From Chlamydiales bacterium (lineage in GTDB: Bacteria; Chlamydiota; Chlamydiia; Chlamydiales; SM23-39): a stretch of 32,000 nucleotides of DNA. The position numbers and the translations under genes are program-made. The stretch covers positions 360,001 to 392,000 of the forward strand of contig OZ253438.1 of NCBI GenBank assembly GCA_965261025.1, in the 5' to 3' direction. Under the pieces are notes generated by a model. The model did not search any database. It saw nothing but the letters and a program-made list of their open reading frames with translations, and was not told where the DNA came from. Below are positions 13,845-29,395 of the stretch, one piece after another. Position 1 is the first letter of the stretch; every line of letters begins with the position of its first letter.

Positions 13845-15109
13845 ATCTCAAAAAATTTACTAAGAGCAAGCGTTGGCAGCTCCTGGGAGATCTTTCGCCA
13901 AAGAGCACTTAGAATAATATTTATACTTTTTTCTGAAGCAAACTCTTGGCTTTTTCTCAACAAAAGAAAACCGGTATCTGCTATCTGATCTTTTTTTTGT
14001 ATGCCAATTACTACAAAACGGTCAGAACCTTCTTCCGAACCCTGAAGAGAATTAAAATCTTGTGAAACAACAACTGCATAAGTTGCTCCGGAAAGACTAA
14101 GAAGTTTTTCCAAGAGTTTTTCTACCTCTTTCTTTATTGAGCTTTTTTCAGAAGAATTTTTAGTACTAGGGAGAGAAAAAATATTTCTGCTCATGAAATC
14201 TGAACTAGCTACGAAAGATCCAAGGAAGTAGGAGCTAGCATTAGACTGCTTTAGAAATTTCTGGGCTAGGATTCCTTTCGAATAAGACTCAGATAAGATG
14301 AGGGTTTCTTTTCTTTTTAGGAGAATTTTATGTATAGCCTCTTCAATTAACCCTGATTCGGAAGGGTAGATATAATTTTTAAACTTTTGAGTAAGGGTAT
14401 TTTCTAAAGCCTTTAATTTTTCCAAACTATTTTTTGTTTGAGCACCCATACTAACGCGGACTAGACCTGAAAAAGGATAGATACCTAGAACGAGATTTTC
14501 AGATTGCCATTGCCTCAAAAAAGGATCTATATCCATTTCTTGCAGAAGGCAGAAATTAAGATATTTAAAAGAAGTTTTTTTTGTTACGGGAAACTTTTGT
14601 TTTAACCAAGGCAAGACCTGCTTTAACATTTCCTGCATTTCTATAGGAACACCTGGAAGCATAATCAGTACCTTTTTTTCTTTTTCAAAGATTAACCCCG
14701 GAGCACTACCTATTTTATTTATGAAAAAAGAAGATCCTTTCGGTGTTTTGGCTAGTTCCTTCCTGATTTGAGGATCTATGTTAAATCGAACTTTTAGATT
14801 TTTTTCGATGACTGGATTTACAACTAATTCTTGATTAAAAACTCTTGATACAACCTGCTTACTCAAATCATCCAATGTAGGGCCTAAGCCCCCAGTTGTA
14901 ATAACAATATCTGATCTTTGAAGAGATTTAGCTATTTCTTGCTCCAGTAAAATGGGGGAATCTGGCAGGGTTACCTGTATAGAGGTTGGGTACCCTTCTT
15001 CTAGCAAAGCCTTACTGATGTAGGTGGTATTTGTGTTAATAGTTTGCCCTCGAAGCAATTCATCACCAATAGAGATATTTTCAATCCACATGTTCCTAAA
15101 TGACCTCAC
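13841..15109 (-). CDS. cinA: CinA-family competence/damage-inducible protein (MoCF-like domain plus PncC-like domain)
   Basis: 422 aa. N-terminal IGDELLRGQTINTNTTYISKALLEEG...ITTGGLGPTLDDLSKQ is typical of CinA. The C-terminal domain resembles the nicotinamide-nucleotide amidase domain, but ESYSKGILA replaces the usual ESCTGG. The start could be Met7 (MWIENISIG). Confidence 0.88.
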   Translation of the reverse strand: MRSFRNMWIENISIGDELLRGQTINTNTTYISKALLEEGYPTSIQVTLPDSPILLEQEIAKSLQRSDIVITTGGLGPTLDDLSKQVVSRVFNQELVVNPVIEKNLKVRFNIDPQIRKELAKTPKGSSFFINKIGSAPGLIFEKEKKVLIMLPGVPIEMQEMLKQVLPWLKQKFPVTKKTSFKYLNFCLLQEMDIDPFLRQWQSENLVLGIYPFSGLVRVSMGAQTKNSLEKLKALENTLTQKFKNYIYPSESGLIEEAIHKILLKRKETLILSESYSKGILAQKFLKQSNASSYFLGSFVASSDFMSRNIFSLPSTKNSSEKSSIKKEVEKLLEKLLSLSGATYAVVVSQDFNSLQGSEEGSDRFVVIGIQKKDQIADTGFLLLRKSQEFASEKSINIILSALWRKISQELPTLALSKFFEI

Positions 15110-15413
15110 TTGAATTAAAGTAGGGATAAAGTATCATTCAAATTTTTATTAATGTCAAAAAACCCACAAATTTTCTACGGAAGCTGTCTGAAAGCATTAG
15201 AATCACAGTTAAGTAAAGGTTCAGATTAGGTAGAAATTGTGAGAAGTTTCATCAAAACTATTTTTCCTCACCTATAAGTTTTGCCTTTGAGAAGAGATTA
15301 GATAATCAGGATTTACCCGTAACTTTCCTATCTTTTCAATTTTTTAGTATCATTAAAAAATATTTTTAATATATGTTGGAGTCTTCGTTTTTTTGAGAAA
15401 GAGGAGGTAGATT

Positions 15414-17042
15414 GTGAAGAAAAAAGTAGCTCTAGTGAGAGCTCCTACGGTTTCTTCTTACGCTGACTATGATGTCAGGGAAGAGCCGATGTTAACAGGG
15501 CTTTTAGGTTATTTTGATTCTATAGGACTTAATTCTTCAGAGTATGATATTTATGATTTTCACCTTGATAGATCGATCAAACATACTAACTTACTCGAAA
15601 ATGAGTATGAATTTTATGTTTTTTTTGTAAGGGATGTGGGTGATTCTTATCACTATTCTTTTAGGCTGATTAATTTTCTTCTGTATAGTGAGAATGTTTC
15701 CTCTAAGATCGTAATGTACGGACAAGTGGCTCCTCTTAGACATTATACCAATATAGATCTTAACAGGGTTACTATCGTAAATCAGAGTGAGCAAGCATTG
15801 GCAAGTGTTTTGGGTGTCAGTACATTGGGAAGTCATTTTGAGAAGGATCTGAGGTCCAGGTCTTACTTTTCTAATTTAAGCTTAGAAGACTGGCAGTTAA
15901 AAAAGAAAAAAGGAGTAGTGGAATCTACTAGAGGATGTCCTTTTCGGTGTAATTTTTGTTTTATTAATGCTGGAGAAAACTACGAAAAACGTTGGGCTGC
16001 GAAGACAAATGACAGCATTTTGCATGACTTAAAGATGTACGTAGATCAGGGTATCCGGAAATTTACCTTTCTTGATTCAGAGTTTTTGGGAGGAGATAAA
16101 AATCACTTTTTAGAGAGAGAGCAGCTACTGAATAGAATCATTTCAGAGCTTCCCAAAATCAAGTATATGATCTGGTGTCGTGCTGATACAATGCTTCGTT
16201 TTAATCAATATGATCTTTTTAAGAGAAGTGGACTTAACAAAGTTCTTGTAGGAATTGAATCGTTCTATCAACCAGATTTGGATGCTTTTAGGAAAGGTAC
16301 GACATCGGATAAATTGATAAGAGGTATTCGAGAATTAATGGAAAGGGAGATCTATGGAACCTATACCTTCATTACTTTCAATCGAAATACAACCCTAGAA
16401 AGTTTAGAACATAACATCGGGGTTTGGGAGGAGTTGCATAATCACCCTAAGGCAAAATATTTAGGAGTACCCAATTTTGCTGTTGGATTTGAGATTGTTA
16501 GAGATTCCAAAACAAGTAAGAAATCGCTTCATAAACTAACAAATAGGACTTATATCAAACCCATTATTTGGCATAGAGGGCAGGAAAACTATCACGAGGT
16601 GTGTTTCCCAGTCGAGCTAGAGCCTTTAATGGAGATTTATCGACAGTTCCACTACGAGTGTAATACGAAGAGAAGTTATTTAAGTAGAATTAGAGAAACA
16701 GTGTCTCCTGAAGAGGTTGCTAGTATTGATTCTTGGTTTCTTGAGTATGGTAGAGAAACGGTTAAGATGATGAAGAAATATCTCAATCGTTACAAAGTAG
16801 GGAAATTAGGCTTTGATGACTTGAAAGAAGCTAGTAGGGAGCTGGCAGAGGATATCAGAAATTTTTACAAGATTCTCCCAGAAAATAGAAGATACATGGA
16901 AGCTTATGAAGAACACACGAAAAGTTTAGATTTTGAAAGTATAGCTGCTGTAGATCATGGCTGGGATCATATTATTCCCCCTATGAATTCTAAGTTTCAG
17001 TTTGAGCTAGAAAAAAAGAAATCTGCTGCAGTTGAGGTGTGA
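15414..17042 (+). CDS. radical SAM enzyme with about 170-aa N-terminal extension (class unknown)
   Basis: 542 aa. GTG start at 15414, 6 nt downstream of a strong GAGGAGG RBS (15401-15407). CX3CX2C cluster GCPFRCNFCF (Cys codons 15936-38, 15948-50, 15957-59). Only two further Cys lie in the C-terminal half, so there is no SPASM/twitch cluster. The length and N-terminal alpha/beta-looking domain recall B12-binding-type radical SAM enzymes, but no cobalamin motif could be verified. Confidence 0.88.
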   Translation: MKKKVALVRAPTVSSYADYDVREEPMLTGLLGYFDSIGLNSSEYDIYDFHLDRSIKHTNLLENEYEFYVFFVRDVGDSYHYSFRLINFLLYSENVSSKIVMYGQVAPLRHYTNIDLNRVTIVNQSEQALASVLGVSTLGSHFEKDLRSRSYFSNLSLEDWQLKKKKGVVESTRGCPFRCNFCFINAGENYEKRWAAKTNDSILHDLKMYVDQGIRKFTFLDSEFLGGDKNHFLEREQLLNRIISELPKIKYMIWCRADTMLRFNQYDLFKRSGLNKVLVGIESFYQPDLDAFRKGTTSDKLIRGIRELMEREIYGTYTFITFNRNTTLESLEHNIGVWEELHNHPKAKYLGVPNFAVGFEIVRDSKTSKKSLHKLTNRTYIKPIIWHRGQENYHEVCFPVELEPLMEIYRQFHYECNTKRSYLSRIRETVSPEEVASIDSWFLEYGRETVKMMKKYLNRYKVGKLGFDDLKEASRELAEDIRNFYKILPENRRYMEAYEEHTKSLDFESIAAVDHGWDHIIPPMNSKFQFELEKKKSAAVEV

Positions 17043-17821
17043 CTTGCATGAGTCAGGGAAACTTACTTTATAGTCAATTTGTTGAATCCTATGATGTTAT
17101 CAGTAGAGATAGGGATTTTTCAAAAGAATGTAGCTTTTTCATTGAGACAGCAGGTCTGATCCCTTCAAAGGGTAGGATTTTAGAGCTTTTTGCAGGGCCT
17201 GCTTATCATAGCAGTGAGTTTAAGAATCGTGGTTTTGGGGTTTGTTGTGTGGATAACTCAATTCCTATGAAGGAGCTGGCTGTTTCTAAGTACGGTATCT
17301 CGGAGTCAGAATATGTATTGGGTTCTTTGCCTGATACTCTTCCTACTTTAAAAGACTTTGCTCCTTTTAGTCTAATTTTGGCTTTGAGGTATTCAATGGG
17401 CTTGATTAACTGGACTTTCATGGAAGAAACTTTACGAGAATCTATGCTGTATTTGAATGTGGGGGGACTGATGGTGTTGGAGCTTCATAGATTTGATTTG
17501 TTAATGGGAAATCTAGAGGATTTAGCAATTCGAGAAAGAGAAAGTGGGAAAGAAGAAGAAGATGTTAGATGTTTATGGCCCAGTGGTCCTATAGAGTGGG
17601 ATTTGTTTGAGCTAAAGGCAAAGATGCCTATTACTTTAGAAAAAAGAAAAGAAAATGGCGAATTAAGCCGAATTAATACTACTTCTAATGAGTGGATCTA
17701 TTTGCATAGAGATTTTGAATTATTAGCACGAAAGTATAAAACTTTCGAGGTAGATCCTATTTCGTATTTAGATCAGCCTTTATTTCATCAATCAAAATTA
17801 TTAGTTTTAAGGAGAATTTAA
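17039..17821 (+). CDS. class I SAM-dependent methyltransferase
   Basis: 260 aa. Motif I-like ILELFAGPAYHS followed by VCCVDNSIPM (acidic post-I residue). GTG at 17039 overlaps the radical SAM stop (GTGTGA); an alternative ATG lies at 17048. The stop overlaps the next ATG (TAATG). Confidence 0.78.
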   Translation: MTCMSQGNLLYSQFVESYDVISRDRDFSKECSFFIETAGLIPSKGRILELFAGPAYHSSEFKNRGFGVCCVDNSIPMKELAVSKYGISESEYVLGSLPDTLPTLKDFAPFSLILALRYSMGLINWTFMEETLRESMLYLNVGGLMVLELHRFDLLMGNLEDLAIRERESGKEEEDVRCLWPSGPIEWDLFELKAKMPITLEKRKENGELSRINTTSNEWIYLHRDFELLARKYKTFEVDPISYLDQPLFHQSKLLVLRRI

Positions 17822-18861
17822 TGAATTATGAATATGAACGTCCTCTAAAAAAATCGGAGGTATTTGTTGCCCTTGTGAGGGAAACTTCTTTTCCTGTGTA
17901 CGAAAAATTGGGAGAGCTGATTCAAGAAGCTTCTGAAAAATATTCTTTTTCTTTTCGGTTTTTTGATTCTTTGGAAAGTTGTTTAAAAGGGTTTCCTGAA
18001 AAGGATTATGTCCTTTCTCATGTGATTGTTGTTACAGATCGAGATACCTTGAAAGAATCCTCTCAGTTTTATCTACCTCTTCTAAAGAAGTTTAAAAGCA
18101 TGAGCTTAGCTCCTATTTATTCTTCTTTGCAGAAATTTAATGAAGAAGGAAAAAATATTGAAACCCTGAAGAAGGCATTCCAGGGAAAAATAAACTTTTT
18201 AAGGCCGAATTCTACAGATAAAGAAGAGAAAATTTATGCCTCACTTCAAAAGATTATTGATAACTCTGTCTGTGATACGGTTCGTATAAAATATAGAGTT
18301 GAAAAAGTGGAGAGGGATATTTCTGCATTGACTCAGGATTTTTCTACTTTTTTTCGTTGTGCTTCCGAAATTTATGAGCGGCTGGCTCTTTATCACAGAG
18401 CTCCCTCTGATGGTTTTTTTGCTATTCGTGTTCCAGACGGTTTTTTAATTACAGCAACAAAAACAAATAAGATAAGCATAGATTGTCAGAGAATTTCTTT
18501 GGTTTATGGATATGACAAAGGGTCAAATCTCATTAAATATAGCGGTAAATACTTACCCTCTTCTGATGTTGTAGAGGCCTCTATTGTTTTTGCTAACTGT
18601 CCAGAGGTTCATAGTTTAATCCATTCTCATGCTAGTGATAGGTTTACAAGGAATCCGGAGTTTGCTCACAAAATTGCCGTTCCTCAGATGTCTTATGGCG
18701 AAGCAGAGTTAGGTTTTGCTTTAGCAAAAGAGGTGCCTAAGCATTTAGATGATTTTATTATTATGGAAGATCATGGAGAGTTATTTGCATTTAGAGAGTA
18801 TAGCGACTTATCAAAGCCTGCTAGGCTTGTTGAGTCTCTTTGTTCTGCTTCTTTAGTATAG
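17821..18861 (+). CDS. fusion protein: unknown N-terminal domain (about 170 aa) plus class II aldolase/adducin-fold domain
   Basis: 346 aa. The C-terminal half matches the class II aldolase pattern: FFAIRVPDGFLITATKTNK, YLPSSDVVEASIVF...VHSLIHSHAS (PSSE...HxH metal ligands) and IIMEDHGELFAF (third His). The N-terminal half (VFVALVRE...HVIVVTDRD) was not recognised. Confidence 0.72.
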   Translation: MNYEYERPLKKSEVFVALVRETSFPVYEKLGELIQEASEKYSFSFRFFDSLESCLKGFPEKDYVLSHVIVVTDRDTLKESSQFYLPLLKKFKSMSLAPIYSSLQKFNEEGKNIETLKKAFQGKINFLRPNSTDKEEKIYASLQKIIDNSVCDTVRIKYRVEKVERDISALTQDFSTFFRCASEIYERLALYHRAPSDGFFAIRVPDGFLITATKTNKISIDCQRISLVYGYDKGSNLIKYSGKYLPSSDVVEASIVFANCPEVHSLIHSHASDRFTRNPEFAHKIAVPQMSYGEAELGFALAKEVPKHLDDFIIMEDHGELFAFREYSDLSKPARLVESLCSASLV

Positions 18862-18894
18862 AGGGTTTTTGCAGCTTAAGAGGAATGAGTCCTG

Positions 18895-19809
18895 ATGTTT
18901 CTTTTACTTTTTGGGTTCTTCCTCTTAGCTTCGAGCTATACGGCGAATAAATTTTTGCTTGATTTTATGCCCGTGTTAGTACTCACCTCTCTCAAGCTTT
19001 GCCTTTCTGGCTGTTGTTTTTTAACACTTCTAGTTTGTAAAAGAAAGATTAGGGGATTAATAAGTAGAATAAGAGAAGATCTTTGGCTTATCTTATTTAT
19101 TTGTGTAGTGACTACAGCCATACCTTATTTTTTAAAGATGCTTTCACTGAAGAATTTAAGTTCTTCTCAGTCTATGCTTATAGGAGGGTTAGATCCTTTT
19201 ATTACGGCTGTTTTTACCTTTTTCTTATTTAACGAAAAACCTTCTATTCATAGATTAAGTGGGATATTTTTAGGCTTGCTCTCTTTAATTATCCTTTTTT
19301 ACTATGATAGTAGCTTATATTCTCATGGAGTAGGATCCAATTATTTTATAGCCTTTTTACAAGGTTTATTGTCTGTTATTATTGGAAGGTATGGGTGGAT
19401 TCGAACACAAAGACTACTTTTAAAAGACCGTTATACTATCTCTGAGATGAATTGTGTTATCCTATTGGGTGGAGGAGGGATTTCGCTTTTAACTTCTTCT
19501 CTTTTTTCTTCAGAACAGTGGATTATTTCCGAGAATCTCAGTATGGGAGTCTTTTTGATTTTGTTGTACAGTGCTATTATCGGAAATGTAATAGCCTATT
19601 ATATCTATTCTTATTCGCTAAAAAAATTTTCTATAGCAACTATCTCTTACTCCGGATTAGTTATTCCTTTTTCTGGGCATTTTTTGGGATGGTTTTTTTT
19701 AGGAGAATCCCTTTCAAAAACTTTTTTTTTAGCAATTATTCTCATTCTTTTCGGTTATAGACTGTACTTTTATCAAAGAAAAAAAGAGGTTATTTCTTAC
19801 AACAACTAG
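18895..19809 (+). CDS. DMT-superfamily (EamA-like) permease, about 10 TM segments
   Basis: 304 aa and hydrophobic throughout. Two-fold internal organisation of 5+5 predicted TM helices and a size typical of EamA/RhaT-type drug/metabolite transporters. It starts 33 bp after the aldolase-like gene. Substrate unknown. Confidence 0.78.
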   Translation: MFLLLFGFFLLASSYTANKFLLDFMPVLVLTSLKLCLSGCCFLTLLVCKRKIRGLISRIREDLWLILFICVVTTAIPYFLKMLSLKNLSSSQSMLIGGLDPFITAVFTFFLFNEKPSIHRLSGIFLGLLSLIILFYYDSSLYSHGVGSNYFIAFLQGLLSVIIGRYGWIRTQRLLLKDRYTISEMNCVILLGGGGISLLTSSLFSSEQWIISENLSMGVFLILLYSAIIGNVIAYYIYSYSLKKFSIATISYSGLVIPFSGHFLGWFFLGESLSKTFFLAIILILFGYRLYFYQRKKEVISYNN

Positions 19810-19899
19810 CTTTTTTTGATTATAACCGCCATTTCTATGAAGTTCTTTTAAGTTTGCACAGAAATCTCAAAAGGAAACGGATCTATGTTCTTCTGAGAC

Positions 19900-19908
19900 T
19901 GTTATAAT
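19900..19908 (+). promoter_or_regulatory. candidate extended -10 promoter element (TGTTATAAT)
   Basis: An exact TGnTATAAT match read at 19900-19908, in the 252-bp gap between the permease gene and the SDR-like gene and about 155 bp upstream of ATG 20062. There is no convincing -35. In AT-rich DNA, chance matches are common. Confidence 0.3.
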
Positions 19909-20061
19909 TTTCTCTAAGAATAATCCTCCAAAATTACAATGAGAAAGTACTAAAATTTTCCCTGGAGAGTTCGTAGAAACCTTGTAAGGCTTCAATTAGA
20001 GCTTGCTTTTTAGTTTAGAAAGTAGAGAATATTTTGAGTTTAATTCAAATCTGGGGGATAT

Positions 20062-20769
20062 ATGGCAGGAGTTGCTTCAAATGCTGTTCTTATTACTGGA
20101 ATTAGAACTAATTTAGGGGTTAATTTATCGGGGCTCTTTCCTCATAACTCTGTTATAGGAACCGCTTCAACAGAGGAAAAAGTTAGGGATTTTAGTGGCA
20201 GGAAGTTGAGAGAAAATATGAGGGTTTTTCCTTTAGACTTTTCCTTGCTTTCACCACAAGATTTTAGAAACCAGTTTAATCTGGGACAGATACCTCCAAA
20301 ATCTTTGAAATATGTTATCCATATTGCTTCTCCCTATGACAGCTCAAAAATAGCTAATGTTTCAGAAGTTACGGCTCAATTTTATACTTCATTCATCCAG
20401 AATAATGTCCTTTTTTTTCAGAGCCTAAAGAATTGTCTTGCAGAGGATGCTCGTGTTATTTCAGTAGGATCTATTGCTGGTGTTCCCGGGAACATGAATG
20501 GAGATAAAACGATGTATAGTTTTTATAAGGCGACTTTATATCCCTTAACAGAAGCTCTTAATAAAGAAGCTTCTGGAGGAGCACTTTTTTCAGTTCTTAC
20601 TTTGGGTAATATGCGAGCGGAAGAATCTAATAGTGGAGCTTTTCTTTCAGACAAAAAAGTAGCAGAAAAGATCAAGCAGATTTTAGAAGGACAAGAATTT
20701 TCTCGAGATAATCTTCTTGTTGCACCAAATGATCCTTCTTATAAAGTCCCTCAAGACTCTAGTTTATAA
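20062..20769 (+). CDS. short-chain dehydrogenase/reductase (SDR)-like protein
   Basis: 235 aa. GGGGGA RBS upstream of the ATG. N-terminal VLITGIRTNLGVNL (degenerate TGxxxGxG), ISVGSIAGVPG, and a YSFYK (YxxxK) catalytic motif. Divergent from canonical SDRs. Confidence 0.68.
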   Translation: MAGVASNAVLITGIRTNLGVNLSGLFPHNSVIGTASTEEKVRDFSGRKLRENMRVFPLDFSLLSPQDFRNQFNLGQIPPKSLKYVIHIASPYDSSKIANVSEVTAQFYTSFIQNNVLFFQSLKNCLAEDARVISVGSIAGVPGNMNGDKTMYSFYKATLYPLTEALNKEASGGALFSVLTLGNMRAEESNSGAFLSDKKVAEKIKQILEGQEFSRDNLLVAPNDPSYKVPQDSSL

Positions 20770-20781
20770 AGGTTTGTAATA

Positions 20782-22098
20782 TTGAGCAGTGATTTTGTTA
20801 TTCATCGTTCAGGGGATGGCTATTTTTCTTCCTCTTGCCGAAATACCTTGAAGGCGGGGGCTTCTGCTCTTTCTTTTTTTTCCGTAATTCCTTATGCTCC
20901 CATTGCATCAGAGTTTCCTTCGGAAAAGATCCCTTTTCTAGGCAATCTGTTTGCTGGTGGTGAAATAGTTGCTTGGAGCGTTTTCTATTCTAACTCTGCT
21001 TTTGAGATTATCTACCAGATAGATCAGGATTTCGGTCATAGAGTTGAGAATTTAGAAGAAAAAAAAGGAAAAGCTTACTGGATTTCAATAATAGCCTACG
21101 GAATCCTTTCTCAGTTTCCAGGGGGTTATGTTATTTACCATTACAATGGTAGTCTCTTCTACACTATTATCTCCCCTTTAGTTTACTCTTTTTTTTCTAT
21201 TCATTCTCTTCATGGATTTTTTTCTAGTACGGAGATTTCTTGTAATCTTCGTAGAAGACCTAGTGGATATCTGTTTACTAATGATCCGGTAAGTTTAAGA
21301 AGAAGACTACGTTTTTCCCTCGATTGTTGCAGATTTATTCTCTTGAATGGAAAAGGAGAACAGTCTGCTGAGTTAAGGAGACAAATTGAGCAGGTTTTAA
21401 TGAAACCTACGATTGATGTTCAAGATCTTCGGTTCCTGAAGGATAAAGGATTGGCTATAGCTCCTATTATGGAGGAGTCTTTAAAAAGAAAAGTGGAATT
21501 GGTTAGAAAGTATGTAGGAGGCTCTCTTGGATTTGTTATCTCTTTATTTAAGCCTGGGCTAGAAGGGTACCTTACTTATAAAGGGCTTTCTTTGGAAGTA
21601 GAAGAATACCTCAGTGTCTTTTTAGCGGTTTTAGCAACTACACCCATGGTTTACTTGGCAGTTTATCTAAATCGAAAGATGTTCGACCAATATTTGCTTC
21701 TGTGTCTCAGAAATTCTACAAGAACTATTTCTACGGACTTTCGGGGCAGCGGTTTTCCTACACTGAGAAAAATAGCCATGCGCATTTCTCCTTTTGTTTG
21801 TTTTTTTGGGATGGGTTCAACCTTTACCGTTTTACGGAATGAATATGGTTTTTCTTCCTTTTTACGTGGAATGCTTTCTGCATTAACTCCTGTAAGCATT
21901 TATTCTGTTTTGCTTAAGTCAATGCACAGGGCTATTAATACATCCTTGGATAGACTTTCCGTGGAAAGGATTTCTCCAGAAGAGGCTAGACTGTATTTGA
22001 GTCTAGAAACATTAGAAAATCTCGAAAGGAGAATAAGCTATCTTCCAGATCGAATAATATATCAAATTTTTTCTGAAGATGAGTTAGAGCTGGAGTGA
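20782..22098 (+). CDS. hypothetical polytopic membrane protein (4 TM + soluble linker + 4 TM)
   Basis: 438-aa ORF with a TTG start at 20782, 12 bp after the SDR stop; there is no in-frame ATG for about 200 codons. Hydrophobic clusters lie at roughly aa 25-150 and 255-390, with a charged region between them. No family recognised. Confidence 0.65.
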   Translation: MSSDFVIHRSGDGYFSSSCRNTLKAGASALSFFSVIPYAPIASEFPSEKIPFLGNLFAGGEIVAWSVFYSNSAFEIIYQIDQDFGHRVENLEEKKGKAYWISIIAYGILSQFPGGYVIYHYNGSLFYTIISPLVYSFFSIHSLHGFFSSTEISCNLRRRPSGYLFTNDPVSLRRRLRFSLDCCRFILLNGKGEQSAELRRQIEQVLMKPTIDVQDLRFLKDKGLAIAPIMEESLKRKVELVRKYVGGSLGFVISLFKPGLEGYLTYKGLSLEVEEYLSVFLAVLATTPMVYLAVYLNRKMFDQYLLLCLRNSTRTISTDFRGSGFPTLRKIAMRISPFVCFFGMGSTFTVLRNEYGFSSFLRGMLSALTPVSIYSVLLKSMHRAINTSLDRLSVERISPEEARLYLSLETLENLERRISYLPDRIIYQIFSEDELELE

Positions 22099-22469
22099 GG
22101 TAGAGAGAAAAAGAAGAATCTACAGTTGTTTTTGGTACGGAATTTACTAGCGTGGTTATCCTAGCTAAATTTCACCTCTATTTTCAGAAAACCAAGGTAT
22201 TTTTATTCCAGGATTTATACTTTTTTATATCCTTTTAAAGAAATTAATTTACTAATTAAGAAATGTTTTTCTTTAAATATGAATTTCATATCTTCTTTTT
22301 GAGTCACTTTAAATTCAATTCTGAAGAAACTAGAATTTATTCTTAAAACTAAAATTGAAAACCACTCTTATTTGAGCAAGACCATTTATTAAAAAGAGAT
22401 ACATTCGATAGCCCCTCGGGGGGGGGTAGGTTTTACCCATAAACTTTCCCTGCTCTTTCCAAGAAAAAC

Positions 22470-22498
22470 TTGCACTTTGTCTTAACTCAATATATATT
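22470..22498 (+). promoter_or_regulatory. candidate sigma-70/66-type promoter for the DUF721-gyrB-gyrA operon
   Basis: TTGCAC (22470-75), a 17-nt spacer, then TATATT (22493-98). The predicted transcription start would leave a very short leader before the GAGGTG RBS and ATG 22516, which weakens the call. Confidence 0.35.
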
Positions 22499-22515
22499 TT
22501 GGACGAGGTGTCCAC

Positions 22516-22839
22516 ATGAGAAAAAGAGCCTATAAGAGGGTTTCTCCCACTGCAAGAACAAGTCAGAACTTAGGGGACTTATTACCTCTTTTTTTGCAAA
22601 AACTTTCTTCAAAAAAAAGAGAGGAAAAGGAGGAGGTTTTTAAGGCTTGGTTTGCTATAATGGGGGAAGAGCTTTCGGGATATACCCGTCCTTTTTCTTA
22701 TGAAAAGAGGGTCCTTTTGGTAAAGGTGCAAAGTTCTACTTTGTACTCTCTTTTGTGCACAAGGGAAAAACCTAGACTTTTGCAGGAGATGCAGGCAAAG
22801 ATTGCTGCAGTAAAGGATATTCAGTTTCGTTTTGGCTAA
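22516..22839 (+). CDS. DUF721-domain protein (DciA-like, putative replicative helicase loader/operator)
   Basis: 107 aa. The pattern LGDLLP...VFKAWFAIMGEELSGYTRPFSYEKRVLLVKVQSSTLYSLLCTREKPRLLQEM matches the DUF721 layout (W..ivG..la..t.p..l..g.L.v.v.ss....eL). It occupies the classical position directly upstream of gyrB. Confidence 0.8.
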   Translation: MRKRAYKRVSPTARTSQNLGDLLPLFLQKLSSKKREEKEEVFKAWFAIMGEELSGYTRPFSYEKRVLLVKVQSSTLYSLLCTREKPRLLQEMQAKIAAVKDIQFRFG

Positions 22840-22848
22840 ACCATTTAA

Positions 22849-25350
<2,502 letters not shown>

Positions 25351-25369
25351 TTGTAAGGAGAGACTTTTT

Positions 25370-27826
25370 ATGTCTTATACGAGTAGAGAAGAGGTTGTAC
25401 CCAAGAATGTAGAAGAGGAGATGAAAGAAAGCTACCTTCGCTATTCCATGTCGGTTATTATCTCTCGAGCCTTGCCTGACGTAAGAGATGGCCTTAAACC
25501 TTCTCAGAGAAGAATTTTATATGCCATGAGACAGCTCAACTTATCACCAGGGGCCAAACATAGAAAGTGTGCAAAAATTTCAGGAGATACTTCAGGAGAT
25601 TATCACCCTCATGGAGAAACGGTAATTTATCCTACCTTAGTTCGAATGGCCCAAAGTTGGGCCATGAGATATCCTTTAATCAATGGACAAGGAAACTTTG
25701 GCTCCATTGATGGGGACCCCCCTGCTGCCATGAGGTATACAGAGGCTAAACTTACCCAGGCTGCGATGGAGTTGATGGAGGATTTGGAAAAGGATACAGT
25801 AGATCTTGCTCCCAACTATGATGAAACAAAAAAAGAACCGCTAGTTTTTCCGGCAAAATTTCCTAATTTGCTCTGTAACGGCTCTTCAGGGATTGCTGTG
25901 GGTATGGCAACGAATATTCCCTCTCATAACCTAAAGGAGTTAATAGATTCTACTATACTTATTTTACAAAATCCCAAGGCAAGCATTGATGAAATCATGC
26001 AAGTAATGCCGGGTCCTGATTTTCCTACAGGAGGTATTATCTGCGGCTATAGGGGAATTAAGGAAGCGTATCATACTGGTAGAGGAAAGCTCCTTTTACG
26101 GGGACTTTTAAAAGTAGAAGAGATCCCTTCTTCTGCAAAGCAGGCCATTATAGTAGAAGAGATCCCCTATAATGTTAACAAATCACGTCTTATAGAACAG
26201 ATAGCAGAGTTAATTACTAATAAGATAGTTCCAGGTCTTTCTGATATCCGAGATGAATCAGATAAAGAAGGTCTTCGTATTTGTTTAGAGTTAAAAAGAG
26301 GAGAAATTCCCGAAGTTACTATCAACCAGCTGTATAAGTATAGTGACTTACAAGTTACTTTTGGTTGCAACATGCTTGCCTTAGATAAGGGTTTACCCAG
26401 AGAAATGAATATTAAGCATTTTCTTATAAGTTGGGTAGATCATCGGGTCGAAGTAGTAAGGAGAAGGACTCGTTATGAGTTAAATAAAGCAGAAACGAGA
26501 GCTCATATCTTAGAAGGTTATCTAAAGGCATTAGACCATTTAGATGAGGTAATTCGTTTAATTCGTTCTTCACAAAATAGGGATGAAGCAAAGGGAGAAC
26601 TTATGAATAGATACCAAATGAGCGAAAAACAAGCTCAGGCGGTTTTAGAGCTTCGTCTATATCAACTTACCTCTTTAGAAAGAGAAAAAGTAGAGAATGA
26701 GCATAAAGAACTTTTAGAAAAAATAGCCTATTTTAAGGCAGTTTTAGCCTCGGAAGAAATGGTAAAAGCCATTATTCAAGAAGAGCTTCTATCGATTCAG
26801 AAAAATCATAAGTCAGAAAGGAAGACAAAGATCATTGCCGCAGAAGGGGAATTTCAAATGGAGGATCTTATTGCGGATGAGCCGGTAATTATCACGGTTT
26901 CTAATGATGACTACATCAAAAGAATGCCTATCAACACTTTTAAGGAACAAAGAAGAGGGGGACAGGGAGTTATTGGTCTTGAAATGAAAAAAGAGACGGA
27001 TATGCTCAAATTTGTCTATGTGGCGTCTACTCATGATCAGCTGCTTGTTTTTACTTCTCTAGGAAGGTGTTATTGGCTTAAAGCGTGGCAACTTCCCGAA
27101 GCTGGAAGGAGGACTAAGGGTAGGCCTCTTGTTGGTCTTTTAGAAGATATTTTACCCGATGAAAAAATTGCAGCTATTGTGAAGGTAAAGTCCTTTAAAG
27201 AACCAGGATCTATCTTATTAGTTACCTTGCGAGGTGTGGTAAAGAAAACAGAGCTTCCTGCCTTTTCTAATCCGAGAAGAAAGGGGGTTTATGCCATTAA
27301 TATTGATGAAGGAGATAGTTTGATTGCAGCAAGGCATGTTGTTTCTGGGCAGCAGATCATGATTTTTACCAAAAATGGGATGGCTGTCCGTTTTGAAGAA
27401 TCACTAGCCCGGGCTTTAGGAAGAGTGGCAAGAGGTGTGAAAGGAGTTACTCTAAAAAACAAAGAAGATAAGGTAGTGGCCTGTGAAGTAGTAAATGCAG
27501 AGGAATCCATACTCGTTGTTTCAGAAAACGGTTTTGGAAAGAGATCCAAAGTAGGGGATTTTCGGCAAACAAACAGAGGAGGAGTAGGAGTTCGTTCTAT
27601 CATTGTCTCTGTTAGAAATGGTTTTGTAATAGGGGCTATATCTGTAAAAGAGGAAGATGGGGTAGTCTTGATGTCTGATTCGGGTCAAGCCCTTCGGATT
27701 CGGATGAAAGATGTGAGGGTCATGGGCAGATCTACTCAAGGAGTTCGTTTAGTACACTTAAAAGAGGGGACTAAGGTAGTAGGTATACAGAAAATAGAAG
27801 CAATTGCTGCAGAAGAAGAGGTATAA
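25370..27826 (+). CDS. gyrA: DNA gyrase subunit A
   Basis: 818 aa. RALPDVRDGLKPSQRRILYAM, the active-site region AAMRYTEAKL, and a GyrA-box (EQRRGGQGVIG), which indicates true gyrase rather than topo IV. It starts 19 bp after gyrB. Confidence 0.98.
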   Translation: MSYTSREEVVPKNVEEEMKESYLRYSMSVIISRALPDVRDGLKPSQRRILYAMRQLNLSPGAKHRKCAKISGDTSGDYHPHGETVIYPTLVRMAQSWAMRYPLINGQGNFGSIDGDPPAAMRYTEAKLTQAAMELMEDLEKDTVDLAPNYDETKKEPLVFPAKFPNLLCNGSSGIAVGMATNIPSHNLKELIDSTILILQNPKASIDEIMQVMPGPDFPTGGIICGYRGIKEAYHTGRGKLLLRGLLKVEEIPSSAKQAIIVEEIPYNVNKSRLIEQIAELITNKIVPGLSDIRDESDKEGLRICLELKRGEIPEVTINQLYKYSDLQVTFGCNMLALDKGLPREMNIKHFLISWVDHRVEVVRRRTRYELNKAETRAHILEGYLKALDHLDEVIRLIRSSQNRDEAKGELMNRYQMSEKQAQAVLELRLYQLTSLEREKVENEHKELLEKIAYFKAVLASEEMVKAIIQEELLSIQKNHKSERKTKIIAAEGEFQMEDLIADEPVIITVSNDDYIKRMPINTFKEQRRGGQGVIGLEMKKETDMLKFVYVASTHDQLLVFTSLGRCYWLKAWQLPEAGRRTKGRPLVGLLEDILPDEKIAAIVKVKSFKEPGSILLVTLRGVVKKTELPAFSNPRRKGVYAINIDEGDSLIAARHVVSGQQIMIFTKNGMAVRFEESLARALGRVARGVKGVTLKNKEDKVVACEVVNAEESILVVSENGFGKRSKVGDFRQTNRGGVGVRSIIVSVRNGFVIGAISVKEEDGVVLMSDSGQALRIRMKDVRVMGRSTQGVRLVHLKEGTKVVGIQKIEAIAAEEEV

Positions 27827-27828
27827 AA

Positions 27829-28443
27829 TTGGGATTTTTGGCCTCTTTTGAAGGAGGAGAAAGAGCGGGAAAAACCACCTTAATTCGCAGTATGGAAAGA
27901 GCCTTAAAAAAAGCCTCTTATTCTGTTTTTGTCACCAGAGAACCAGGAGGGTCTTTACTCGGAGAAGAAGTCAGACTGCTTCTTTTGCAAGGAAAACAAC
28001 CTATTTCTTCTAGGGCCGAGCTTGCCCTTTTCTTAGCTTCCAGAGCCGAGCACGTAGAAAAGATTTTGATCCCTGCTTTGCAAAAAGAACAAGTGGTTTT
28101 GTGCGATAGATTTTCTGACTCTTCTATTGCCTATCAGGGGGGAGGCAGAAAATTGGGAATGGAAAGAGTTGAAGAGATCAATGCTTTCTTTTGCCAAAAC
28201 TTGCAACCGGAGATTACCTTTTATTTAGATATTGATCCGAAAAAGGCTTTTTCTAGAAGCTCCTTGGAAAAGGATCGGATTGAAGAGGAAGAATTTTCTT
28301 TTCATGAAAGAGTGCGCAATAGTTTTCTCTGTCTTGCAAAGAAATATCCGAGTAGAATTTTCCCCTTAGATGCTGCTTTGCCAGCAGAGGTTCTTTTTGA
28401 AAAAGCTTGGAAGCTTTTAGAACCTAAACTAACTTGTGTATAG
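27829..28443 (+). CDS. tmk: thymidylate kinase
   Basis: 204 aa. P-loop FEGGERAGKTT, TREPGG, and DRFSDSSIAYQGGGR. The TTG start lies 2 nt after the gyrA stop. Confidence 0.92.
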   Translation: MGFLASFEGGERAGKTTLIRSMERALKKASYSVFVTREPGGSLLGEEVRLLLLQGKQPISSRAELALFLASRAEHVEKILIPALQKEQVVLCDRFSDSSIAYQGGGRKLGMERVEEINAFFCQNLQPEITFYLDIDPKKAFSRSSLEKDRIEEEEFSFHERVRNSFLCLAKKYPSRIFPLDAALPAEVLFEKAWKLLEPKLTCV

Positions 28444-28444
28444 G

Positions 28445-29395
28445 ATGTTATTTTCTTCCCTTATTGGAAATGAATCAGTAAAGCAGCAGCTTATAAAAAC
28501 TTTGCAAAAGCAGGCTTTACCAAACGCGGTTCTTTTTTCAGGGCCAGAAGGAGTAGGAAAGTCTTTTTTCGCTAAAGAGGTAGCAAAATACCTTCTAGAA
28601 GAGGATTTTCTAAGTGAACATCCTGATTTTCATCTGTACGGGCCAGAAAGTAAGTCTTTCTTTTATAAGATAGAGACAATCCGAGAGATTTTAGAAGAGG
28701 CCTACAAACCCCCTTTTTCTGCTCCTAGAAAAGTATTTATCCTTCAACAAGCAGATAAGATGCAGCCTGTTTCTTCTAATGCTCTCTTAAAAACCTTGGA
28801 AGAACCCACTTTAGATGCTTTTTTTATTTTAATTACCTCTTGCTTCTCCCAGATTTTACCAACGATTGTTTCAAGGACGGCCCATTTTTCTTTTTTATCT
28901 CTTAAAGAAGAAGAAATAGAAAAAGCTCTTATAGATCTCTATCAGATATCTTCTTTGGAAGCAAAAAAAGCAGCGAAGATATCTCAAGGATCTTTTACCA
29001 GAGCTTGTGAGTTAGTCTCTTCGGAAAAAGCCCTTTTTATCAAAGAGGGTTTTTTCGCTCTTTTCCAGAAAAAATTTCAGTCTTTGGAAGAATTTTTTGC
29101 TCTACTTACCAGGATAGAAAAGTATATTATGGAAGCTAAAGAGCCGGTTAGAGCCCTTCGTCAATTTTTTTCCTATATCTACCTTTGGTATAAAGATGTA
29201 TTTCTTCTACAAGAAGGGCTTTCTTTAGAAAACCTTTATTTTTCTGAGTTAAGAAAGGAAAAAAGGATAGAAAAGGCTCTTCCTCCTATAGACCAGGTAG
29301 AAACATGGATAGAAAAGGCTTTAGTGCTGTTTGAAAGAGGAACTAAGGCCTTTTCTTGTTTGGAGTATATAAGTATACAGTTTAGGCTTGTTTAA
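28445..29395 (+). CDS. holB: DNA polymerase III delta-prime subunit
   Basis: AAA+ clamp-loader motifs: LFSGPEGVGKSFFAKEVAKYLL, NALLKTLEEP, ILPTIVSRT. ATG at 28445 (MLFSSLIGNE) is preferred over the track GTG at 28436, which overlaps the tmk stop. Confidence 0.85.
   Translation: MLFSSLIGNESVKQQLIKTLQKQALPNAVLFSGPEGVGKSFFAKEVAKYLLEEDFLSEHPDFHLYGPESKSFFYKIETIREILEEAYKPPFSAPRKVFILQQADKMQPVSSNALLKTLEEPTLDAFFILITSCFSQILPTIVSRTAHFSFLSLKEEEIEKALIDLYQISSLEAKKAAKISQGSFTRACELVSSEKALFIKEGFFALFQKKFQSLEEFFALLTRIEKYIMEAKEPVRALRQFFSYIYLWYKDVFLLQEGLSLENLYFSELRKEKRIEKALPPIDQVETWIEKALVLFERGTKAFSCLEYISIQFRLV

Follow-up and report, generated by a model that had tools for sequence, protein, structure and literature searches.

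Six co-directional genes at positions 15414-22098 of the window (the whole 32,000-nucleotide stretch of chlamydial DNA analysed here) probably form one operon and make up a compact biosynthetic gene cluster that belongs to a rare, horizontally mobile and uncharacterised cluster family, a reading to which we assign a probability of roughly 55%. Its core of a radical SAM (rSAM) enzyme, a methyltransferase-fold protein (MT) and a two-domain aldolase-fold protein recurs together in about 25 unrelated bacteria, and the predicted product is therefore most likely a small methylated metabolite. Among the hypotheses raised in a preliminary description of this DNA, the best fit is a pathway that makes and exports a small methylated compound resembling a sugar or a cofactor. 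That description could match the gene combination to no named pathway, and the same holds after wider searches: the cassette has no name in any library or paper searched, its matches in Pfam, NCBIfam and PADLOC are all sub-threshold and at superfamily level, and full-text literature searches found nothing on the combination.

The four genes at 15414-19809 are intact and tightly packed (Table 1), with the overlaps, ribosome-binding site (RBS) and CX3CX2C motif present in the sequence as first described. The rSAM and MT genes overlap by 4 nt (GTGTGA at 17037-17042, where the MT GTG start at 17039 runs into the rSAM TGA; an in-frame ATG at 17048 offers an alternative start), the MT and aldolase-fold genes overlap by 1 nt (TAATG at 17819-17823, with AGGAG at 17810-17814), and a 33-nt gap with an AAGAGGA RBS (18862-18894) precedes the DMT gene. 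These overlaps suggest translational coupling. The unit had been thought to end at 19809; since a short-chain dehydrogenase/reductase (SDR) and a membrane protein accompany the cassette in relatives, we extend the operon to 15414-22098. The 252-bp gap between the DMT and SDR genes counts against a single transcript for all six genes and may hold an internal promoter; it has no Rfam match, and its small ORFs look spurious. Upstream of the cassette, searches of 15110-15413 returned no Rfam family and no tRNA, and the small ORFs there, viewed within the window alone, are only 22-29 aa. A promoter scan of the same region gave 14 sites against 21.9 in shuffled sequence and, with fewer sites than shuffled sequence, supports neither the presence nor the absence of a promoter. 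In family alignments, all family-invariant residues are kept in the window proteins.

Table 1. Coordinates of the cassette genes and surrounding features in the window.
Feature	Positions	Strand	Basis or remarks
rSAM enzyme, 542 aa	15414-17042	+	PF04055; N-terminal Rossmann-like ~1-135, core ~165-350, C-terminal helical ~380-541
Class I SAM-dependent methyltransferase-fold protein (MT), 260 aa	17039-17821	+	motif I LELFAGPAYH
Two-domain class II aldolase-fold protein, 346 aa	17821-18861	+	fold model, family profile
DMT/EamA permease, 304 aa	18895-19809	+	PF00892, hydropathy
Divergent SDR, 235 aa	20062-20769	+	weak NCBIfam SDR matches; clusters with SDRs of other loci
Polytopic membrane protein, 438 aa	20782-22098	+	homologues in nearest-clade loci
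cinA (MoCF_biosynth + CinA/PncC NMN-deamidase domain)	13841-15109	-	Pfam, NCBIfam
Intergenic region between divergent cinA (-) and cassette (+), 304 bp	15110-15413		GAGGAGG RBS at 15401-15407
Spacer inside cassette, DMT to SDR, 252 bp	19810-20061		
Accessory block, cinA + six-gene cassette, ~8.6 kb	13850-22450		comparison with L095

The combination had been called an orphan, which the comparison of loci contradicts: of 28 distinct loci with an rSAM homologue, 26 carry the whole triad of rSAM, MT and aldolase-fold protein, which is thus not unique to this chlamydia. Its carriers are Actinomycetota, Bacteroidota, Myxococcota, Cyanobacteria, Alpha-, Beta- and Gammaproteobacteria and low-GC metagenomic bacteria, spanning at least 7 phyla or classes and a locus GC of 31-71%. 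The MT lies beside the rSAM in 27/28 loci, in one case as a short fragment; the remaining locus breaks off next to the rSAM gene. As to recurrence of the original four-gene set, the triad recurs whereas the DMT permease does not, having no homologue in any of the 28 other cassette loci; an SDR is a frequent fourth member. Among 5.8 billion clusters, only 58 belong to the rSAM family and 42 to the aldolase-fold family; these two very small families occur together, the latter being found only alongside the cassette rSAM.

As signs of mobility, cassette GC3 differs from that of the flanks in Sororendozoicomonas, Tolypothrix and Chromobacterium, and in one locus (L008) the cassette adjoins Tn7-like tnsABCDE genes. 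Its neighbours include tailoring genes (PhyH in 5 loci, WelO5-like in 5-6, DUF2520 in 5 and O-MT in 3) as well as P450s, MFS and ABC transporters and APH-type kinases, a tailoring and transport complement of the kind usual in biosynthetic clusters. Uptake followed by catabolism or salvage, in which the permease would bring in a compound from the host or its surroundings, for instance a methylated amine or sugar, for the enzymes to convert, is in our view quite unlikely. Class II aldolases are typically catabolic, the cassette transporters, DMT and MFS proteins among them, could be importers, and in Saccharopolyspora the genes preceding the cassette (Rieske, DMGDH-like and SHMT) are of the kind used in betaine demethylation. 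However, such neighbours are limited to that one lineage, the Fe/2OG oxygenases, O-MTs and P450s nearby suggest biosynthesis, and two SAM-consuming enzymes, one of them a methyltransferase, would be odd for catabolism.

The host is an environmental member of the Chlamydiota with a small genome, and its closest sequenced relative (L095; GyrA 92% identical) has neither cinA nor the cassette at the syntenic position. Positions 2549-5980 of L095 align to window 9325-12747 and 7084-14021 to window 22454-29389, and between these aligned stretches lie only two small ORFs. This absence defines the accessory block listed in Table 1, in which cinA shares the gain or loss of the cassette.

The families first guessed for the rSAM, MT, aldolase-fold and DMT proteins are borne out by profiles, homologues and models. 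The rSAM enzyme matches PF04055 over residues 170-332 (61 bits, cut-off 29.5), and its CX3CX2C motif and a partial TIM barrel modelled at pLDDT >90 place it in that superfamily. Across 31 family sequences, C175, C179 and C182 are the only invariant cysteines, which means that there is no SPASM or twitch cluster and agrees with the earlier opinion that this is not a SPASM-type RiPP maturase. We consider RiPP maturation and anti-phage defence very improbable functions of the cassette. Weak NCBIfam matches to RiPP rSAM C-methyltransferases would suit the former; a SPASM/twitch maturase was rejected on the missing cysteines and on the lack of any precursor-like ORF beside the window genes, where the small ORFs (20-42 aa) look spurious, and none of the operon proteins matches an RRE or peptidase family in Pfam or NCBIfam. 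Defence would suit a mobile, patchy cassette with one sub-threshold PADLOC match each for rSAM and MT, yet these matches (26 and 19 bits, with none for the other four proteins) cover generic SAM-binding cores, and no nuclease or effector was found.

In a structure search, the AF2 model of the rSAM enzyme (pLDDT 91) had OxsB, TsrM, MgmA, CysS and AprD4 as its best PDB matches, OxsB being the closest (TM 0.62, E 2e-16; AprD4, TM 0.54, E 2e-9). The overall model superposes best on OxsB, TsrM, MgmA and CysS, and the modelled architecture appears class-B-like. A check for the B12-binding domain PF02310, suggested in the preliminary description, gave no Pfam match in the window rSAM, and in an hhalign comparison with a BchE-like PF02310 protein the aligned part was the rSAM core alone. 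AprD4 has the same architecture and is not known to require cobalamin. From the lack of a sequence-detectable B12 domain and the lifestyle of the host, the enzyme is probably cobalamin-independent here.

MiaB and RimO also match the rSAM model, and together with weak NCBIfam rSAM matches to HpnJ, HpnR and 'ladder' (hopanoid/lipid) and a membrane protein conserved in the nearest clade they could point to modification of a macromolecule or of the envelope, acting on an RNA (tRNA or rRNA), a protein or a membrane lipid. We hold this to be unlikely, because MiaB and RimO rank below OxsB, TsrM and AprD4, the lipid-family scores are 34-40 bits against cut-offs of 360-650, the aldolase-fold site resembles that of sugar-phosphate enzymes, and the patchy, island-like distribution with small-molecule tailoring and exporter neighbours fits poorly with such a role. 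For the lipid or envelope variant, which had been among the original hypotheses, we found no positive evidence beyond the membrane protein, itself poorly conserved.

The window MT has no Pfam match, and Methyltransf_25 is matched by 12 of 14 of its homologues. Its motif I and a conserved D/E in 'AID.S' are those of a class I SAM-dependent methyltransferase, and the family profile finds small-molecule methyltransferases in the PDB (1wzn, 1y8c, DesVI, ToxA, PEAMT and GNMT, down to E 3e-10), with small-molecule N-methyltransferases nearest. By fold it belongs to the class I methyltransferases, with methyl transfer as its predicted activity. The class I fold also occurs in SAM-utilising enzymes that do not methylate.

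The aldolase-fold protein falls under the PF00596 threshold (18.8 against 22.2 bits), whereas 31 of 34 family members match this profile (best E 6e-13). Its AF2 model (pLDDT 95) matches FucA (Foldseek E 2e-8), YgbL, DrdA and AraD, and with H268, H270 and H318 invariant it belongs to the class II aldolase/adducin superfamily. A small N-terminal alpha/beta domain (~14-120) is joined to the C-terminal class II aldolase fold (~150-346) through a conserved linker motif (K117..N125..K144..D147 N148..C151 D152..R155..K157). The C-terminal domain is predicted to keep an AraD/FucA-type metal and Ser-Ser site, consisting of D249/H268/H270/H318 and S247-S248, to which S71-S72-E73 and H92/H94 of FucA correspond in the alignment. 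FucA, AraD, RhaD, MtnB, DrdA and OtnC/YgbL share this HxH...H triad, acidic fourth ligand and Ser-Ser pocket; the window protein has Asp as the acidic ligand, as in AraD, and differs from these enzymes in the extra alpha/beta domain and invariant charged linker at 1-150. This N-terminal part of about 150 residues, absent from the single-domain equivalogs of ~215-230 aa, matches no Pfam family. Almost all family members are 327-359 aa long, and at 36-49% identity they are as conserved as the rSAM itself.

None of the named class II enzymes describes this family. Its commonest NCBIfam match is L-ribulose-5-P 4-epimerase (30/34 members, all far under cut-off), the MtnB model is matched by 12/34 at E 0.0015 or worse, and for the L-ribulose-5-P 4-epimerase, L-fuculose-1-P aldolase and MtnB equivalogs the best E values are 1e-6 to 1e-3, with cut-offs of 251-264 bits; every class II aldolase equivalog model is missed by more than 200 bits. 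These results bear on the earlier hypothesis that the class II aldolase disposes of the 5'-deoxyadenosine/5-deoxyribose by-product of the rSAM reaction, which we think has very little chance of being correct. DrdA (6btd) and MtnB have the same fold and are among the weak matches, though only at superfamily level (DrdA ranks 23rd among the fold matches of the model). None of the six operon proteins matches a kinase, isomerase, nucleosidase or phosphorylase family in Pfam or NCBIfam, as 5-deoxyribose disposal (DrdK/DrdI/DrdA) or MTA salvage with its kinase and isomerase partners would call for, and the aldolase-fold protein belongs to a private two-domain family conserved as well as the rSAM. 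Moreover, genes for salvaging such by-products usually belong to the housekeeping set and not to a mobile cassette.

The putative SDR keeps the catalytic YxxxK (Y152, K156), while its TGxxxGxG glycine-rich motif is degenerate (TGIRTNLG). It has weak NCBIfam matches (E 1e-5), and its homologues in other cassette loci match adh_short clearly; it clusters with triad-adjacent SDRs in 12 other loci and is 25-30% identical to those of L089, L092 and L094. The membrane protein has no Pfam, NCBIfam or PADLOC match and is 26.6% identical over 391 aa (E 5e-36) to the product of the gene after the SDRs in L089. Relatives of it are present in all seven nearest-clade loci (L003, L006 with 2 copies, L089 with 2, L091, L092, L093 with 2, and L094).

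The DMT permease has PF00892 in two EamA stretches and about 10 hydrophobic segments by hydropathy, and it is found in the cassette context in this chlamydial copy only. Chlamydia CTL843 (SAMHT) is likewise a DMT protein with two EamA domains and 10 transmembrane segments, which exchanges SAM for SAH, and most Chlamydiales lack metK (PMC3104491). Given this shared architecture, the chlamydial genome and the adjacent SAM-consuming enzymes, it is possible, if doubtful, that the window DMT by itself acts as a SAM/SAH antiporter feeding the two SAM-consuming enzymes in a metK-less host rather than as a product exporter. SAMHT, however, is reported in all Chlamydiales (PMC3104491), whereas the window DMT sits in the accessory block and is missing from the syntenic site of L095, which argues against a core SAMHT orthologue.

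Three further known systems resemble parts of the proposed biosynthetic cluster. Oxetanocin OxsB, which carries out a cobalamin-dependent ring contraction, is a non-methylating rSAM of class-B architecture with a phosphorylated nucleoside substrate; it is 14% identical to the cassette rSAM and has an extra N-terminal domain (~730 aa), and its partner OxsA has an HD domain, for which no operon protein gave a family match. The arsQML (arsinothricin) cluster also combines an rSAM (ArsL), a methyltransferase and a permease. ArsL is the best NCBIfam match of the cassette rSAM, although the score is 73 bits (cut-off 450) and the match spans only model positions 181-341 of NF040542, within the rSAM core, which leaves the window enzyme outside that family; the C-terminal RCCLKC motif that gives the model its name is absent, the window rSAM ending in ...KKKSAAVEV. 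To our knowledge, arsQML includes neither an aldolase-fold protein nor an SDR. AprD4/AprD3, an rSAM 1,2-diol dehydratase and NADPH reductase pair (PMC5461906) of apramycin C3'-deoxygenation, shares with the cassette an rSAM with an N-terminal Rossmann-like domain and a reductase partner. Beyond the rSAM core the two show no detectable sequence homology, an MT and an aldolase-fold protein are obligatory parts of the cassette, and no aminoglycoside gene (2-DOI synthase, aminotransferase or glycosyltransferase) was seen among the called genes near it.

By analogy with these enzymes, a tentative sequence of steps can be assigned for the small methylated metabolite. A phosphorylated keto-sugar-like or nucleotide-like precursor would bind the metal and phosphate site of the aldolase fold and undergo aldol, retro-aldol or epimerisation chemistry there. 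The rSAM would catalyse a non-methylating radical step, either a rearrangement or a dehydration, with a carbonyl left behind as in the AprD4 and OxsB reactions; the SDR would reduce that carbonyl, as AprD3 does for AprD4, and the MT would supply a methyl group, with N or O as the probable acceptor. Counting against the scheme are the named-family matches, all far below their cut-offs; N-methylation is further disfavoured in that no core enzyme provides an amine, and the SDR step by the degenerate glycine-rich motif of the window protein. In other lineages, Fe/2OG oxygenases (PhyH or WelO5-like), O-methyltransferases and DUF2520 reductases would decorate the scaffold and MFS or ABC transporters would move the product; the chlamydial DMT permease and membrane protein would either export it or exchange SAM for SAH.

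Three enzymes encoded side by side in the window, a radical SAM enzyme (rSAM), a SAM methyltransferase and a two-domain class II aldolase-fold protein, travel together across bacteria, with their genes grouped in 26 of 28 distinct loci examined. One of the two loci without this full triad is truncated by a contig end and the other looks degraded. Both signature families are small: among 5.8 billion public proteins the rSAM family comprises only 58 clusters and the aldolase-fold family only 42, and full-length relatives were found in 18 species genomes of 185,579 scanned. Carriers include Saccharopolyspora, Nocardiopsis and Amycolatopsis, Roseivirga, Cyclobacteriaceae and Myxococcus, Tolypothrix, Snowella and Symploca, and Hyphomicrobiaceae, Alsobacter, Paracidovorax citrulli, P. 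oryzae and Chromobacterium piscinae; further carriers are Marithrix, Fastidiosibacter, two Endozoicomonadaceae and several low-GC metagenomic bacteria. The rSAM identities correlate with those of the methyltransferase across loci (rho 0.69) and are uncorrelated with those of the aldolase-fold protein (rho 0.14), where the range of values is narrow; this comparison was given no weight as evidence. In Fastidiosibacter lacustris (locus L021, 10001–13100), the rSAM gene is followed by an MFS gene and a mere fragment of the methyltransferase gene, with no aldolase-fold gene within 10 kb, and this cassette appears to be decaying.

The preliminary description placed four genes in the operon, and their coordinates and junctions (GTGTGA, TAATG and a 33-nt gap) agree with ORF calls and with direct reading of the sequence. 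Its boundary after the DMT gene does not hold: an SDR and a membrane protein recur with the triad in other loci, and the operon therefore probably consists of six genes (15414–22098) with a 252-bp internal spacer. The public gene call starts the rSAM at GTG 15435, seven codons later (535 aa vs. 542 aa), but alignment with 30 homologues and the GAGGAGG ribosome-binding site 7 nt upstream favor GTG 15414. The 304-bp spacer upstream of this gene is shared with the divergent cinA. Promoter-like sites were fewer than in shuffled sequence, and a terminator scan gave none convincing between the genes. Rfam and tRNA scans of the window returned no match, with no riboswitch in either the cassette leader or the internal spacer.

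Genes of the cassette in the window
Product	Position	Strand	Remark
rSAM	15414–17042	+	ORF
Methyltransferase-fold protein	17039–17821	+	ORF
Aldolase-fold protein	17821–18861	+	ORF
DMT	18895–19809	+	ORF
Putative SDR, 235 aa	20062–20769	+	Same family as SDRs adjoining the triad elsewhere
Membrane protein, 438 aa	20782–22098	+	Homologues in nearest-clade loci

The putative SDR of the window belongs to a single family that adjoins the triad in 12 other loci. Homologues of the membrane protein occur in all seven nearest-clade loci, often in two copies per locus, and rSAM identity between the window and these loci is 44–48%; no member of the membrane protein family tested matched Pfam, and almost no residues are invariant. 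The DMT has no counterpart in any other cassette locus, where MFS or ABC transporters stand in its stead. Its relatives comprise 36 representatives at E 1e-30 or better, and the ten best that were looked up are without names. Tailoring genes vary by lineage and encode PhyH or WelO5-like Fe/2OG oxygenases, O-methyltransferases, DUF2520 reductases and a P450. In two actinomycetes (L010, 13779–14669, and L013, 14962–15885), genes for APH-type phosphotransferases, which could act as substrate kinases or in self-resistance, adjoin the cassette on the opposite strand. The Saccharopolyspora rosea cassette is preceded (L001, 320–9200) by genes for a Rieske oxygenase, a reductase, a dimethylglycine-dehydrogenase-like DAO-FAO_M-GCV_T protein and SHMT, a set typical of quaternary-amine demethylation.

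In an AlphaFold model of the rSAM (pLDDT 91), a Rossmann-like domain at the N-terminus precedes the rSAM barrel, and the C-terminal domain is helical. The nearest PDB structures are OxsB, TsrM, MgmA, CysS, AprD4 and TokK, with MiaB and RimO next, and by this predicted structure the enzyme has class B architecture. The B12-binding family PF02310 was undetected in it, and by profile it aligns with a BchE-like enzyme over the rSAM core alone. Scores against named NCBIfam models fall short by hundreds of bits (best, ArsL, 73 vs. 450 bits). As the preliminary description had read it, the CX3CX2C motif stands without SPASM cysteines: C175, C179 and C182 are the sole cysteines invariant in the family, so the enzyme has no SPASM or twitch cluster. 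RiPP maturation was rejected, as auxiliary cysteines are lacking and nothing resembling a precursor ORF was seen; three non-coding stretches of the window yielded only spurious-looking ORFs of 20–42 aa, besides a dciA-like gene.

PDB sequence searches with single cassette proteins were empty or near-empty, and matches by sequence needed family profiles. The closest matches to the profile of the methyltransferase family are small-molecule methyltransferases: the unannotated 1wzn and 1y8c, the sugar N,N-dimethyltransferase DesVI, ToxA, phosphoethanolamine N-methyltransferase and glycine N-methyltransferase. Modification of a lipid, RNA or protein by the cassette is a minor possibility. In the model of the aldolase-fold protein (pLDDT 95), residues ~150–346 adopt a class II aldolase fold, with structure matches to FucA (E 2e-8), YgbL, DrdA and AraD. 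H268, H270, H318, D249 and S247-S248 are invariant in the family and align with the metal ligands and Ser71-Ser72-Glu73 of FucA; the acidic metal ligand is an Asp (D249), as in AraD, and AraD models are the commonest weak match of the family (30 of 34 members). Residues 1–150 form an additional alpha/beta domain with an invariant charged motif and matched no Pfam family. Disposal of 5′-deoxyadenosine or 5-deoxyribose, proposed earlier as the role of this protein, was abandoned, since none of the six operon proteins matched a family of partner enzymes and the aldolase-fold family is private to the cassette. A defense system was likewise rejected, with no PADLOC match.

Strict co-inheritance of the three enzymes, lineage-specific tailoring genes, varied transporters and mobility together fit a family of small biosynthetic gene clusters. 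By analogy, the pathway might begin with aldolase-type processing of a phosphorylated carbonyl compound and continue with a radical rearrangement or dehydration, then a ketoreduction and finally a methylation; AprD4/AprD3 (PMC5461906) are a documented example of an rSAM paired with a reductase. We tentatively propose, with a probability of about 0.3, that the triad makes a previously unknown class of small metabolite by new radical chemistry, in which a cobalamin-independent rSAM of class B architecture acts on a phosphorylated sugar or a pyridine nucleotide and rearranges it, and that intracellular and host-associated carriers (a chlamydia, Endozoicomonadaceae and an ankyrin-rich metagenomic bacterium) use the product in interactions with their hosts. 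The DMT may be an exporter of the product or, alternatively, may supply SAM; the Chlamydia SAM/SAH antiporter is a DMT (PMC3104491).

One speculative candidate for the rSAM substrate is NaMN, suggested by cinA in the window and nadCBA in the operon of L006, the cassette locus of an ankyrin-repeat-rich bacterium. In the window, cinA (NMN-deamidase domain) is co-variable with the cassette. In L006 (13422–17242), nadC, nadB and a nadA of unusual length (455 aa) lie within the cassette operon, between the aldolase-fold gene and an O-methyltransferase. A search of all cassette loci found cinA and nad genes in these two alone, and the idea therefore stays speculative.

All of the cassette proteins fall into known superfamilies, and gene clusters with an rSAM are an established type of system. 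The cassette, its rSAM subfamily and the two-domain aldolase-fold family appear uncharacterized in the libraries and literature searched, and full-text literature searches on radical SAM enzymes with class II aldolase, methyltransferase, SDR, chlamydiae or Acidovorax citrulli turned up no description of the cassette. Few rSAM enzymes of class B architecture are known to catalyze anything other than methylation (OxsB, AprD4 and a handful of others), and all of these have revealed new chemistry. If the proposed radical chemistry is correct, the two-domain aldolase-fold protein would add a new functional type to its superfamily; should the product prove to be a commonplace modified sugar or osmolyte, the cassette would be mostly of enzymological interest. 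Because the enzyme set is compact and strictly co-inherited across many phyla, with culturable and genetically tractable carriers, both orphan families are directly testable. An intact accessory biosynthetic operon is unusual in a 1.4-Mb chlamydial genome. Genome reduction is strong in chlamydiae and most Chlamydiales depend on imported SAM, yet two SAM-consuming enzymes are kept here, which suggests a selected role, possibly directed at the host.

Among named relatives, the window GyrA best matches those of Chlamydiales, Parachlamydiales and Chlamydiota MAGs, none of which exceeds 92% identity. The contig that carries the window measures 1.42 Mb. The closest relative, GCA_964351495.1, is collinear (menD-menF-menG, two small ORFs, dciA-gyrB-gyrA-tmk-holB), and cinA and the cassette are missing from this syntenic region; ~8.6 kb (window 13.85–22.45 kb) is therefore an indel. 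Since its GC3 equals that of the flanks, the cassette is not a recent arrival here; in other genomes it looks island-like by GC3. On one metagenomic contig (L008, 179–7936) Tn7-like tnsA-tnsB-tnsC-tnsD-tnsE genes stand immediately upstream of the cassette, which may be transposon cargo. The only repeat found flanking the indel is a 27-nt, 85% imperfect direct repeat (13912–13938 and 22052–22078) within the coding 3′ ends of cinA and the membrane-protein gene, probably due to chance in AT-rich DNA.

Elsewhere in the window, an 1802-aa RHS/YD-repeat protein (3653–9061, − strand) is followed on the same strand by two 189-aa ORFs (3103–3672 and 2487–3056) that are 86% identical to each other. The large protein may be a toxin and the two ORFs a duplicated immunity-like gene; none of these genes was found in the closest relative, whose syntenic locus spans 14.6 kb. 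The genes menD, menF and menG/ubiE of the classical menaquinone pathway (9226–12783, − strand) belong to a single gene string that also includes two small ORFs and cinA; cinA overlaps the next ORF by 4 nt (13841–13844). Upstream of gyrB, a 107-aa ORF (22516–22839) is 71% identical to a DciA-domain-annotated gene in the cassette-free locus of the closest relative, and is followed by gyrB-gyrA-tmk-holB in an order common to both genomes.
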